Position numbers and translations under genes: made by a program. The notes beneath the pieces are model-generated. The model was not told the origin of the DNA and did not search any database. It saw only the letters and a list, made by a program, of their open reading frames with translations. From an uncultured Alphaproteobacteria bacterium (GTDB taxonomy: Bacteria; Pseudomonadota; Alphaproteobacteria; UBA828): DNA of 62,183 nucleotides. Within the stretch, counting starts at the first letter, position 1. Each line of letters opens with the position of its first letter. The stretch spans positions 1 through 62,183 of the forward strand of contig CAJXFT010000002.1 of NCBI GenBank assembly GCA_913053235.1, in the 5' to 3' direction. Shown here in pieces: positions 20,091 to 24,332 of the stretch.

Positions 20091-22841
20091 GTGGAGCAAA
20101 ACCGCACGCCGACACGCCGCAAGATCAGGACCTACTGCAATCAGTGCGGCAATGGCCCCGACCTGCTGACGGTCGAGACGTTGGATGGCGTGGCGACCAG
20201 GATCGAACCCGATTTCGCCGCTCATGGCGTGCATCCCGCCGACGGCAAGGTGTGCGTCAAAGCCTATGGCCTGGTGCAGAAGCTCTACAATCCGCATCGT
20301 GTGTTGACGCCCTTAAAGCGGACGAATCCGAAGAAAGGCATGAACGAGGAGCCGGGCTGGGTCGAGATCAGTTGGCAAGAAGCCCTCGATACCGTCGCCG
20401 ACAAGCTCAACGGCATCAGAAAGCGCGGCCTCAAGGACGAAAACGGCAACCCCAGATTCGCCTTCACGATCGGCTCGGCGGCGTCTCCGATGTGGTACAT
20501 CGGCTCGTTCCCGGCATTCATCCAGGCGTGGGGCGATGTCGACCGTTCGATCGGCTCGGGCACGACCAATAAATGCTACCACACCGAGCATATATTCGGT
20601 GAGCTTTGGCATCGCGGCTTCACCGTGTTGCCGGACACGCCGCGCAGCGAATACATCATCGGCTTCGGCTATAACGCCGACGGTGCGGCGGGCGGCGTCA
20701 TTGCCGCGCGCCGGCACGCCGACGCCCGCGCGCGCGGGGTCAAACGAATTCAGTTCGAGCCGCATCTCTCGGTCAGCGGCGCCTCCGCGACGGAGTGGCT
20801 CCCCATAAAGGCCAAGACCGATTCGGCGGTGCTCTACGCCATGCTGCATGTGCTTCTGCATGAGCATCCGCTGACCGACCTCGACGTCGATTTTCTCAAA
20901 AACCACACAGCGAGCCCCTACCTGATCGGGCCGAACGGTTTCTACCTGCGCGATCCCGAAACCCGAAAACCACTGATCTGGGATTTGGCCGGCGGGCAAG
21001 CCGTGCCGCATGACCAAGCGGCGGCTGATCCTGCTCTCGAAGGATGTTTCGAGGTCATCGATGCGATCGAAATCGGCGCCGATCACGAGCTGTGGACACA
21101 TGCGCGCGCCTCGGGGATGACCGGCTTCGAGGCGCTCAGGCGACATGTCGCCGATCGCTCGCCCGAATGGGCGGCGGGCGTTTCAGACATCCCGGCGCAC
21201 AAGATACGCCGTATCGCCAACGAGTTCCTGTCGCACGCCAGGATCGGCGAGACGGTCGAGATCGACGGCCACCTATTGCCCTTCCGGCCGGTGGCGATCG
21301 TGTTCGGAAAATCGGTGAACAATGGCTGGGGCGCCTATGAATGCATTTGGGCGCGCACCGTGTTGCAAACGCTCGTCGGCGCGCTCGAAGTTCCCGGCGG
21401 CATCATCGGCAGCCTCGTTCTGCTGTCGGGAGCGCACGGCTACGATCGGATGAACACCGTGATAGCGGGCGAGGACGGTTTCATGTTCTATCCGTTCAAC
21501 CCGACAACGAAGAATGAGTGGAATCCGAGGTCGGATTCTCGGCACGCGCACCTCACGCTGACGCCGATGGCGGGAGACGGCATCTACAGCCATAACATCG
21601 GCAGCACGGTCATCAGTTGGATGCGGCTGCAGGGCCGCGCCGCCGAGACCTGGCCGCGGCCGAACCCTCCCGATGTGTGGTTTCTCTATCGCTGCAACCC
21701 GATGAATTCGTTCTCGGAACTCACCAAGCTCGGGGAGTCGATTGCCCGCTTCCCGTTCACCGTCACCTTCTCCTACACGATGGATGAGACCAACCATTTT
21801 GCCGACATCGTTCTGCCCGAGGCGATGGATCTCGAAAGCTACCAATTGATCCCGCTCGGCGGCACCGGCTGGCTCGAAAGCCTGTGGAGCTCGAAGGGCT
21901 GGGTTCTGCGGCAACCGATCGTCGAGCCCAGGGGCGAGGCCAGGAACTTCAGCTGGATCAGCAACGAGCTGGCGCGCCGCACCGGTTTGCTCGAAGCCTA
22001 TAACGCCGCGATCAACGCCGGCGCATGCGGCGTTCCGCTCAAGGCGGAGGGCTATGACCACGCGCTCGATGTCGCCGAAGAGCATGATGAGAAAGCGGTC
22101 TGGGACCGGGTTTGCAAAGCCGCGTCCGCCAGCCTAACGGACGGCGAAGAGGTGCACGGCCTGTCCTGGTTCAAGGAGAATGGAAACCTCCTCAGGCCGA
22201 TGTCGACGCTCAAATGGTATCTGTTTCCCAAAATGGTGGAGACCGGACTGCGCTTCGAGCTTCCCTATCAGGAGCGATTCCTGCGCATCGGCAAACAACT
22301 GGCCAACCGGCTGCACGAGACCGGCGTTGAATGGTGGGACCGGCAACTGGCCGATTACGAAGCGATGCCCGAATGGAAAGACCTCGAGAAGCTTTGGGAC
22401 GATGCGTTGCAGCGAAACTATCAGGCGGCCGCCAAGGATTATCCGTTCTGGCTCCTCACCACGCGCAGCATGCAGCATGCCTGGGGCGCCACCGCGAGCA
22501 TTCAGTTGCTGGCCGAGGTCGGCAATAACCTCGCCGGCCAGGACGGCATCCTCGTCAACAGCATAAAAGCGGCCGAGTTGGGCATTCGCGACGGCGATGA
22601 GATCGAAGTCCGCTCGGCGGTCGGGGCGATGCGCGGCACCGCCCGGCTGCGCCACGGCGTGCGGCCCGACGTGGTGCTCATGATCGGCCAGTGGGGGCAT
22701 TGGAAGACCCCCTTCGCCAAGGACTTGAAGCGGCCGGGGCCGAACGACCTGATACCGATGAACATGGATCTGATCGACGGAATGGGATCCACCAACGAGA
22801 CCACAAAGGTGGCGATCAGCCTGGTCGAGGCGCGCCCATGA
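20091..22841 (+). CDS. DMSO-reductase-family (bis-MGD) molybdopterin oxidoreductase catalytic subunit, no Tat signal (PadB-like architecture)
   Basis: 916 aa. GTG 20091 follows GAAGGGGG. The N-terminus MEQNRTPTRRKIRTYCNQCGNGPD goes straight into a degenerate Fe-S motif (C16-x2-C19 ... C55, with the usual third Cys replaced by Pro). Candidate Mo ligand region is SGTTNKCYHTEH. C-terminal molybdopterin-binding barrel ELGIRDGDEIEVRSAVGAMRGTARL. Confidence 0.85.
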   Translation: MEQNRTPTRRKIRTYCNQCGNGPDLLTVETLDGVATRIEPDFAAHGVHPADGKVCVKAYGLVQKLYNPHRVLTPLKRTNPKKGMNEEPGWVEISWQEALDTVADKLNGIRKRGLKDENGNPRFAFTIGSAASPMWYIGSFPAFIQAWGDVDRSIGSGTTNKCYHTEHIFGELWHRGFTVLPDTPRSEYIIGFGYNADGAAGGVIAARRHADARARGVKRIQFEPHLSVSGASATEWLPIKAKTDSAVLYAMLHVLLHEHPLTDLDVDFLKNHTASPYLIGPNGFYLRDPETRKPLIWDLAGGQAVPHDQAAADPALEGCFEVIDAIEIGADHELWTHARASGMTGFEALRRHVADRSPEWAAGVSDIPAHKIRRIANEFLSHARIGETVEIDGHLLPFRPVAIVFGKSVNNGWGAYECIWARTVLQTLVGALEVPGGIIGSLVLLSGAHGYDRMNTVIAGEDGFMFYPFNPTTKNEWNPRSDSRHAHLTLTPMAGDGIYSHNIGSTVISWMRLQGRAAETWPRPNPPDVWFLYRCNPMNSFSELTKLGESIARFPFTVTFSYTMDETNHFADIVLPEAMDLESYQLIPLGGTGWLESLWSSKGWVLRQPIVEPRGEARNFSWISNELARRTGLLEAYNAAINAGACGVPLKAEGYDHALDVAEEHDEKAVWDRVCKAASASLTDGEEVHGLSWFKENGNLLRPMSTLKWYLFPKMVETGLRFELPYQERFLRIGKQLANRLHETGVEWWDRQLADYEAMPEWKDLEKLWDDALQRNYQAAAKDYPFWLLTTRSMQHAWGATASIQLLAEVGNNLAGQDGILVNSIKAAELGIRDGDEIEVRSAVGAMRGTARLRHGVRPDVVLMIGQWGHWKTPFAKDLKRPGPNDLIPMNMDLIDGMGSTNETTKVAISLVEARP

Positions 22842-23497
22842 CGCGCTACGTCATGGTCGCCGATCTCAACCGCTGCATCGGCTGCCAGACCTGCACCGTC
22901 GCCTGCCGGCACACCAACGCGACGCTGCCGGAGATCGAGTGGCGCCGGGTTCTCGATATGGAATCGGGAGAATTCCCGGACGTCGAGCGCCTGTTCGTGC
23001 CGGTCGGCTGTCAGCATTGCGCGGACCCGCCCTGCATGCATGTGTGTCCGAGCACCGCCACCCGCCAACGAGACGACGGCATCATCAGCATCGATTACGA
23101 CCTCTGCATCGGCTGCAGCTATTGTGCCGTCGCCTGCCCCTATCAGGCGCGCTACAAGACCGACAGGAACCGCTTTGCCTATGACGGCAAACCGATGCCG
23201 AGCGAAGAAATTCTGATGGATGAGAAAAGGCTCGGCGTGGCGCAGAAATGCACCTTCTGCTCGGACCGGATCGACGCCGGCCTGGAGGCAAACCTGACGC
23301 CCGGAGTGGATCCCGACGCGACGCCCGCCTGCGTCAACTCATGCATCGCCAATGCCCTCCACTTCGGCGACATTGAAGACCGCGAAAGCAACGTCTCGGC
23401 ACTCGTCGACAACAGCCCGCACTTCCGCATGCATGAAGAACTCGGAACCGACCCCGGCTTCTATTACCTGTGGCGAAGGAAATCCGTCGAGGAGTAG
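22838..23497 (+). CDS. 4Fe-4S ferredoxin-type electron-transfer subunit (DmsB/PadC-like, four cluster motifs)
   Basis: Start ATG 22838 (MTRYVMVADLNRCIGCQTCTVAC) with ATGA overlap to the catalytic subunit. Cys groups: CIGCQTCTVAC, CQHCADPPCMHVCP, CIGCSYCAVACP, CTFCSDR...CVNSC. Confidence 0.9.
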   Translation: MTRYVMVADLNRCIGCQTCTVACRHTNATLPEIEWRRVLDMESGEFPDVERLFVPVGCQHCADPPCMHVCPSTATRQRDDGIISIDYDLCIGCSYCAVACPYQARYKTDRNRFAYDGKPMPSEEILMDEKRLGVAQKCTFCSDRIDAGLEANLTPGVDPDATPACVNSCIANALHFGDIEDRESNVSALVDNSPHFRMHEELGTDPGFYYLWRRKSVEE

Positions 23498-23501
23498 CAG
23501 T

Positions 23502-24332
23502 GTGACAAACACCGGCCAGGTGCTTCAAGCCAATTGGGACTGGCGCGCGGCGGGCAACTTCATGTTCGGCGGCAGCGGTGGAAGCCTGTTGCTGATCGCC
23601 GGGTTTTCTTCGCTGCCCGACGTGCCGCATCCACTCGTCGCTGCCGTGGCGATGGCGCTGGTCGGATTGGGCCTCTTTCTGGTGTGGGCTGAAATCGGGC
23701 GTCCATGGCGCTTCCTGCACGTGTTTTTTCACCCCCGCACATCATGGATGACGCGCGAGTCTGGGGTTGCCGTCGCCTTCTTTGCCCTGGCCATCACCGG
23801 CGTCGTGCTCAGCCTGCCGGTCGTCGTCGCGGTGGCGGGGGTGATGGGTTTGCTCTTCGTCTATTGTCAGGCGCGCGTCCTCAAGGCGAGCACGGGCATT
23901 CCGGCCTGGCGCCAGCCGGCCATCGTTCCCCTGATCCTCGCCACCGGACTGACCGAGGGAGCGGCATTGTTGTTGCTGTTGCTGGCCGCCGTGCAGGAAG
24001 CGATTCCGTGGCTGGACTATATACTGTTGGGACTGATCGTGGTGCGCGCGGTGGCGGCGGCGTCCTATCTGCACGCTCTCGCGCGCGCCAATGCACCGGA
24101 GGCGACGATTTCGGTGCTCAAACGAACGGCGATCCCCTTTCTTATGGTTGGAAGCCTCATTCCACTGATCCTCATCGTCCTCGAAGTAAGTATGACGACC
24201 GAGGCCGATATAGCGATCATCGTCGCCGGCATATTGGCTCTTGTCAGCGGCTGGTATGTGAAATTCACCATCGTCACGCGCGCCGCTCACGTCCAGGGAT
24301 TTTCCCTCGGCGTGCCGGGGCCGGCCTCTTAG
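23502..24332 (+). CDS. Integral-membrane anchor subunit (DmsC/PadD-like, about 8 predicted TM helices)
   Basis: GTG 23502 lies 5 nt after the Fe-S subunit stop. Highly hydrophobic sequence, with WDWRAAGNFMFGGSGGSLLLIAG and successive hydrophobic helices. The start is uncertain; an internal Met is possible. Confidence 0.7.
   Translation: MTNTGQVLQANWDWRAAGNFMFGGSGGSLLLIAGFSSLPDVPHPLVAAVAMALVGLGLFLVWAEIGRPWRFLHVFFHPRTSWMTRESGVAVAFFALAITGVVLSLPVVVAVAGVMGLLFVYCQARVLKASTGIPAWRQPAIVPLILATGLTEGAALLLLLLAAVQEAIPWLDYILLGLIVVRAVAAASYLHALARANAPEATISVLKRTAIPFLMVGSLIPLILIVLEVSMTTEADIAIIVAGILALVSGWYVKFTIVTRAAHVQGFSLGVPGPAS

Follow-up and report, generated by a model that had tools for sequence, protein, structure and literature searches.

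To our knowledge, only one member of a large branch of cytoplasm-facing molybdoenzymes has been characterised, the phenylacetyl-coenzyme A (CoA):acceptor oxidoreductase PadBCD. It is found in Thauera aromatica and Aromatoleum (EC 1.17.5.1; Rhee & Fuchs 1999, cited in PMC4453571). Here we describe a related three-gene operon, ABC, located in a 62,183-nucleotide stretch of DNA (contig CAJXFT010000002.1, hereafter the window) from the metagenome-assembled genome (MAG) of an uncultured alphaproteobacterium. We consider it probable that this operon encodes a heterotrimeric, membrane-bound and cytoplasm-facing dehydrogenase with a molybdenum (Mo) bis-pyranopterin guanine dinucleotide cofactor (Mo-bisPGD), which belongs to a non-canonical branch of the PadBCD family, is partnered by an XdhA-like CoxLMS hydroxylase and acts on a substrate other than phenylacetyl-CoA. 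The PadBCD family and its architecture were already known; the reading of Asp24 as an iron-sulfur ligand, the explicit split between canonical and non-canonical members and the six-gene module described below are new.

The window enzyme has the same subunit sizes and subunit order as PadBCD. The two also share the lack of a twin-arginine translocation (Tat) signal, a C-x2-C-x4-D...C-x-K motif, a cysteine as Mo ligand, a four-cluster ferredoxin and an NrfD-type anchor. Unlike PadBCD, the window enzyme falls outside the canonical clade and differs in its Mo-ligand loop; neither padJ nor a thioesterase nor padEFGHI is linked to it, and its linked partner is instead an XdhA-like CoxLMS hydroxylase. 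The closest solved folds to its catalytic subunit A are those of PsrABC, PhsABC and ArrAB (PDB 2vpw and 6cz7; Foldseek E 1e-36 to 1e-43). These systems resemble the window enzyme in having a Cys Mo ligand at the equivalent position and a four-cluster B subunit, as well as an NrfD-type anchor in the case of Psr. In contrast to the window enzyme, they are Tat-exported, periplasm-facing reductases with a full set of four Cys at the iron-sulfur site FS0, and they share less than 20% identity with it.

Family membership and relation to canonical PadB

A word-indexed search with A returned 2455 homologues. The nearest is 95% identical and the next best are 57-66% identical, many of them named phenylacetyl-CoA:acceptor oxidoreductase by the Joint Genome Institute (JGI). 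A scan of GTDB species genomes gave 589 relatives, and the best 80 of these 589 were analysed as loci. They come from Alpha-, Beta- and Gammaproteobacteria, including Aromatoleum, Parazoarcus and Azoarcus. Neighbour genes were annotated by our own open reading frame calling, all-against-all BLAST clustering and Pfam searches on representatives. As a proxy for PadB we used a protein of Aromatoleum toluclasticum (L085; G002:C7:17143-19860) that is 54% identical to A over residues 8-914. Downstream of its gene lie a PadI equivalog at 25005 (873 bits, cut-off 700) and a phenylacetate-CoA ligase at 26407 (704 bits, cut-off 646), and the locus matches the published order of the pad cluster, padBCD-padEFGHI-padJ (PMC4453571, PMC5109826). 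The proxy bears the same CxxC-x3-P-D...C motif as A; identity to the PadC and PadD proxies from this cluster is 59% for B and 36% for C. Given these identities and the shared motif, we therefore regard the assignment of A, B and C to the PadBCD family as firm. An earlier note on this DNA, drawn from the sequence without database searches, had already taken the enzyme to be PadBCD-like rather than an exported respiratory reductase; the identities to the proxies, the absence of a Tat signal and reductase model scores far below cut-off all point the same way. At 54% identity to PadB, a SoeABC-type sulfite dehydrogenase is unlikely.

Another Aromatoleum gene (L027, 62% identical) was rejected as canonical PadB, because it is flanked by genes for caprolactamase-like subunits, a thiolase and Qat defence and is thus a paralogue; L085 was found via PadI. 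At the L027 locus, a complete QatABCD anti-phage system adjoins the PadBCD paralogue (L027:15766-20868). A Rhodospirillales MAG has a tandem pair of PadB-like catalytic genes for proteins of 916 and 924 aa (L055:47-5639), with B and C downstream on the opposite strand.

Phylogenetic trees were built with FastTree (85 rows) and with IQ-TREE under LG+C20 (42 rows). In both, L085 groups with all loci that have a PaaK-type ligase or FlK-type thioesterase in a canonical clade with support of 98-100 (100 in the Shimodaira-Hasegawa-like approximate likelihood ratio test, SH-aLRT, of IQ-TREE). The window sequence and its homologue from a Rhizobiaceae MAG (L001) sit on a long stem in a different set (support 98), outside the canonical clade, in the IQ-TREE tree, and FastTree agrees on their exclusion. 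The monophyly of the non-canonical sequences seen with FastTree ('clade II') was not recovered under LG+C20, and our claim is therefore limited to exclusion from the canonical clade. Thirteen positions discriminate the canonical from the non-canonical group. Among them are positions 158-159, directly before C162, which are Q-G in canonical sequences and G-T in the others; the Mo-ligand loop reads SGTTNKC in the window versus GSGQGVKC in the canonical group.

The gene content was also compared. No CoA ligase, thioesterase or phenylglyoxylate oxidoreductase is encoded in the window. The MAG (3.9 Mb) encodes MobA and has a single PadB-family gene, and at 94.7% completeness it contains no PadI above cut-off. 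Its only PaaK, of the aerobic type, scores above cut-off and lies on a different contig (C29). Among 116 neighbours in the branch that contains the window enzyme, Pfam identified TonB receptors, CoxLMS, hydantoinase and Cys/Met-type pyridoxal phosphate (PLP) enzymes, with no dominant CoA-ligase/thioesterase signal; this tally speaks neither for nor against an acyl-CoA substrate. Judging from the sequence comparisons, the window enzyme is not an orthologue of canonical PadB, and phenylacetyl-CoA is therefore probably not its substrate.

The alternative that survives best is a true phenylacetyl-CoA:acceptor oxidoreductase (EC 1.17.5.1), which would convert phenylacetyl-CoA to phenylglyoxylate and would be fed by the PaaK encoded elsewhere in the genome. 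We hold this to be unlikely, although the identities of A and B to the PadB and PadC proxies, the common cofactor motifs, the names given by JGI to the homologues and the PaaK on C29 all speak for it. The window sequence lies outside the clade (support 100) that unites canonical PadB with all the loci carrying a PaaK-type ligase or FlK thioesterase, and its active-site loop differs from theirs. Further, neither a thioesterase nor a ligase is present in the window, PadI is missing from the MAG at the cut-off used, and the conserved partner is a CoxLMS hydroxylase.

The FS0 site and the Mo ligand

The N-terminus of A reads MEQNRTPTRRKIRTY-C16-N-Q-C19-G-N-G-P23-D24 and is followed later by C55-V-K57. 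The translation of A agrees with the earlier description of this motif, in which the first Cys is residue 16, Cys occur at 16, 19 and 55, and a Pro stands three residues after C19. We take C55-x-K57 to be the equivalent of the fourth Cys and relay lysine of formate dehydrogenase H. The residues C16, C19, G22, P23, D24, C55 and C162 are invariant in 21 family members, and P-D follows CxxC-x3 in 114 of the 115 homologues that have a CxxC motif. We also aligned 47 sequences, including four paralogues (27-32% identical) with full four-Cys motifs. C16, C19, C55, K57, C162 and H167 were invariant across this alignment, and G22-P23-D24 inside the PadB family only. As aligned here, the degenerate iron-sulfur motif characterises the PadB family as a whole and is not peculiar to the window gene. 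A. toluclasticum encodes four paralogues that are 27-32% identical in the alignment, have a full four-Cys FS0 and are Tat-less as well (L088-L091; G002, contigs C5 and C17); another PadI-type gene, the second one, scores above cut-off and lies some 7 kb from one of them.

When the profile of the 47-sequence alignment was aligned with PDB sequences, P23 fell on the third FS0 Cys of ArrA and PsrA, two enzymes with x3 spacing. We then tallied the third ligand position in 93 full-length relatives obtained by a profile search of 1.84 billion representative proteins. It is an x3-spaced Cys in 41 of the 93, an x4-spaced Cys in 33, an x4-spaced Asp in 5 and an x4-spaced His in 1; other spacings or residues occur in 11, and CxxC was not found in the remaining 2. 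One representative protein, 40% identical over its full length (P0129), has CNQCGMGP-C where the window has CNQCGNGP-D, ungapped, with a Cys at the D24 position. A Tat-bearing protein that is 36% identical (P0130) has a His there. Across these sequences, position 24 is one that alternates among Cys, His and Asp, all capable of metal ligation, and the motif is probably better read as C-x2-C-x4-D...C, with Asp24 replacing a Cys ligand. The earlier reading of an FS0 with three of its four Cys was thus right about the Pro at the third x3 position, but the ligand it regarded as missing is supplied in the x4 register by Asp24, if this assignment is correct. P0130 (898 aa) carries a clear twin-arginine signal, RRRFIKAG; exported proteins with a non-Cys FS0 ligand thus occur in the branch too.

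Two enzymes of the dimethyl sulfoxide reductase family offer a comparison: AioA has an FS0 with three Cys and a 3Fe-4S cluster, and NarG has a His as non-Cys FS0 ligand. Unlike in either of them, the non-Cys FS0 residue of the window subunit is an Asp at the third ligand position. We know of no description of such a ligand set, with an Asp-ligated iron-sulfur cluster, in this enzyme superfamily.

Since relatives carry a Cys or a His at the D24 position, a retained FS0 with three Cys and Asp24 is more likely than no cluster. If FS0 were absent, the conserved Cys would have a structural role only, and the first cluster of B would receive electrons straight from the pterin. Such an arrangement would suit the presence of three Cys only and the lack of a Pfam Molybdop_Fe4S4 match in A, but we judge it improbable, given that C16, C19, D24, C55 and the relay Lys57 do not vary within the family and that position 24 alternates only among metal ligands in the relatives. 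The same residues disfavour one half of the earlier suggestion of a 3Fe-4S cluster or none; the other half, 3Fe-4S, is plausible. From the sequence, a 3Fe-4S cluster and an Asp-ligated 4Fe-4S cluster are equally plausible.

The candidate Mo ligand named in the earlier note, C162, is invariant even in the paralogues that are 27-32% identical, and the profile alignment placed it on PsrA Cys173 and on the ligand Cys of ArrA, in agreement with that role. An AlphaFold2 model of A (predicted local distance difference test, pLDDT, 89.7; predicted template modelling score, pTM, 0.92) had ArrA, PcrA and PsrA as nearest solved folds, all below 20% identity. No PadB-family structure was among the PDB matches of this model, and we found no structure or electron paramagnetic resonance data for the PadB family.

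Operon structure and orientation

Coordinates and translations confirmed the three-gene operon proposed earlier, with a 916-aa A, a four-cluster B and a polytopic C (Table 1). The ATG of B at 22838 overlaps the TGA of A at 22839-41 (ATGA), and a 4-nt gap separates the TAG of B at 23495-97 from the GTG of C at 23502. The three genes are kept together in 79 of 81 loci. An in-frame TAA at 20043-45, 15 codons 5' of the start of A, is the stop of the upstream CoxS gene, and no ATG, GTG or TTG is found among the 15 codons between them; the stop just upstream and the lack of an earlier start with a twin-arginine signal are therefore as originally described. The start of A is shared with its 95% identical homologue (P0002). 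A promoter and terminator scan of the + strand gave no more than the shuffle expectation.

Pfam recognises the Molybdopterin and Molydop_binding domains in A. B has 16 Cys in four complete groups, enough for four [4Fe-4S] clusters, and matches the Fer4_11 model and the DsrO, NrfC and TtrB models, below their cut-offs. C matches NrfD_2 (3e-11) rather than the DmsC model; the anchor, formerly called DmsC-like, is polytopic as stated.

An R9-R10 pair is present in A, but the 15 residues ahead of C16 leave no room for a Tat h-region, and the pair is therefore not part of a Tat signal. Among 115 homologues, the stretch ahead of the first Cys spans 8-26 residues (median 15), and no Tat signal was found in any of these family members. 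The topology of the anchor was derived from family-averaged hydropathy and charge profiles of 66 anchor sequences; a crude sliding-window transmembrane finder was dropped in favour of these profiles because it returned overlapping segments. Hydropathy gave eight helices, and the conserved K/R residues all fall in the N-terminus, in loops 65-87, 123-140 and 186-210 or in the C-terminus, while the alternate loops have none. By the positive-inside rule, this one-sided distribution therefore fits cytoplasmic termini and large loops, with N-in/C-in predicted. PsrC and DmsC have the opposite orientation to the one predicted for the window anchor. The missing Tat signal and the basic loops on one side of the predicted topology both argue for a cytoplasm-facing, non-exported A, in line with the first description.

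Reductase models score A well below their cut-offs: PhsA 182 (cut-off 694), DmsA 121 (778) and ArrA 111 (1600). A therefore lacks the features of the exported Psr/Phs/Arr/Dms type, namely a Tat signal, a four-Cys FS0 and scores above cut-off. A cytoplasm-facing, NarGHI-like reductase that oxidises quinol and reduces an N-oxide, S-oxide or oxyanion from the island pathways is very improbable: the nearest solved folds and best NCBIfam matches are indeed reductases (ArrA, PsrA, PhsA, PcrA) and orientation does not dictate direction, but every reductase model is far below cut-off (PhsA, for instance), identity to the solved reductases is under 20%, and the only characterised close relative is an oxidase.

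Table 1. Positions of the ABC operon, its sites and neighbouring genes in the window
Feature	Positions	Strand	Basis or remark
F420-type luciferase-like oxidoreductase	9412-10425		above cut-off of F420-dependent LLM model
CoxLMS set upstream of set 3	12548-16286		
CoxL-M-S set 3, XdhA / 4-hydroxybenzoyl-CoA reductase (4-HBCR)-like Mo hydroxylase, module partner of ABC	16315-20045	+	Pfam, NCBIfam
Ribosome-binding site GAAGGGGG, 7 nt ahead of the GTG start of A	20076-20083	+	read from sequence
Subunit A, Mo-bisPGD catalytic subunit, PadB family, 916 aa, GTG start, no Tat signal	20091-22841	+	
FS0 site, C16-x2-C19-x4-D24 ... C55-x-K57	20136-20261	+	invariant in family
C162 codon, predicted Mo ligand, loop SGTTNKCYHTEH	20574-20576	+	alignment
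Subunit B, ferredoxin with four [4Fe-4S] clusters, 219 aa	22838-23497	+	Cys count, homology
Subunit C, 8-helix membrane anchor, 276 aa, GTG start, predicted N-in/C-in	23502-24332	+	Pfam NrfD_2
EamA-family transporter, 5 nt downstream of C	24338-25285	+	Pfam EamA 3.8e-25; absent from L001
CoxM, CoxS, CoxL downstream set	25278-29222		CoxL scanned; CoxM and CoxS read from translations only
Second luciferase-like oxidoreductase, other side of island	37177-38193		

Genomic neighbourhood and proposed function

ABC is located between two Mo-hydroxylase sets, as noted before, namely CoxLMS set 3 and the downstream set (Table 1). The best NCBIfam matches of the set-3 CoxL are XdhA and the alpha subunit of 4-HBCR, both below cut-off, and the CoxL proteins of sets 2 and 4 are like carbon monoxide dehydrogenase or glyceraldehyde dehydrogenase. 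The window and the Rhizobiaceae locus L001 have only CoxLMS set 3 and ABC in common, with identities of 86% for CoxL and CoxS, 92% for A, 94% for B and 85-86% for C, and their flanks differ. In four other lineages (L007, L013, L034 and L042), mutually orthologous CoxMSL genes (62-78% identical) lie directly beside PadBCD-like genes, and their CoxL, like that of set 3, best matches the XdhA and 4-HBCR-alpha models. This common best match and the recurring adjacency make a functional link between an XdhA-like hydroxylase and the PadBCD branch of the window plausible. The GC content is 0.61-0.63 at positions 16001-24000, which hold set 3 and ABC, versus 0.64-0.67 in the upstream sets; the lower value fits an acquisition of the six genes as a unit.

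The low-GC gammaproteobacterial locus with PadBCD-like and CoxMSL genes (L034:17121-20411) also encodes a SCO1/MauG fusion and SBP56, a protein of the methanethiol-oxidase family. Further genes at many loci of gammaproteobacterial MAGs encode a Cys/Met-PLP enzyme, RidA, a TonB receptor, a DmdB-like ligase and a DmdC-like acyl-CoA dehydrogenase. The gene content of these gammaproteobacterial loci may link them to organosulfur metabolism.

Elsewhere in the window, MoxR and CoxE-VWA genes are found between the luciferase-like gene that starts at 9412 and the first CoxLMS set listed in Table 1. The MAG encodes CofD (G000:C136:981-1883), which, together with the match to the F420-dependent model, suggests a Rhizobiaceae-like bacterium that uses F420.

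We infer the cluster type, the quinone as acceptor and the substrate class of the window enzyme from these comparisons, and its oxidising direction from homology with PadBCD. In the mechanism that we propose, an activated C-H bond of a cytoplasmic substrate would be oxidised at the Cys162-ligated Mo, with oxygen derived from water, as expected from homology with phenylacetyl-CoA:acceptor oxidoreductase. Electrons would pass through an FS0 held by C16, C19, C55 and probably D24, with K57 as relay to the pterin, and onward through the four [4Fe-4S] clusters of B to a quinone bound by the eight-helix anchor C. The substrate would be a compound handled jointly with the XdhA-like CoxLMS hydroxylase, within an island for the catabolism of N-heterocycles and amides, and ABC and this hydroxylase would constitute a mobile six-gene module.

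A more specific version of this proposal is offered tentatively. The six genes at 16315-24332 may form a mobile conserved module in which an XdhA-like hydroxylase with a Mo-molybdopterin cytosine dinucleotide cofactor (Mo-MCD) and a PadBCD-like Mo-bisPGD enzyme catalyse two oxidations in succession, each dependent on water and independent of O2, in hosts that are otherwise aerobic marine bacteria. The substrate would be a heteroaromatic compound or an arylacetate, possibly not a CoA ester, and the PadB-type FS0 would be Asp-ligated.

Several points weigh against the reading of ABC as a non-canonical PadBCD-type dehydrogenase with a CoxLMS partner and a substrate other than phenylacetyl-CoA. 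Cytoplasm-facing NarGHI, taken as an analogue, shows that orientation alone does not set the catalytic direction. Under LG+C20 the non-canonical sequences branch as a grade and not as one clean clade, and the root of the IQ-TREE tree rests on very long outgroup branches. With 54% identity to canonical PadB, the enzyme could have phenylacetyl-CoA or another arylacetyl-CoA as substrate. The CoxL of set 3 is just 35% identical to the CoxL of L007, L013, L034 and L042, and for this reason the recurring CoxLMS-PadBCD pairing may be convergent or coincidental. Finally, the ligand role proposed for Asp24 is derived from alignment only.

Most of the environmental 'PadB' annotations sampled, that of the window included, lie outside the phenylacetate-linked clade, and the automatic EC 1.17.5.1 labels carried by such proteins are therefore probably wrong. 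The seemingly 'degenerate' iron-sulfur motif of the PadB family would be best explained by a Cys-to-Asp swap at a ligand position. Both points, if borne out, would be relevant to the way in which C-H oxidation without O2 is coupled to the quinone pool.

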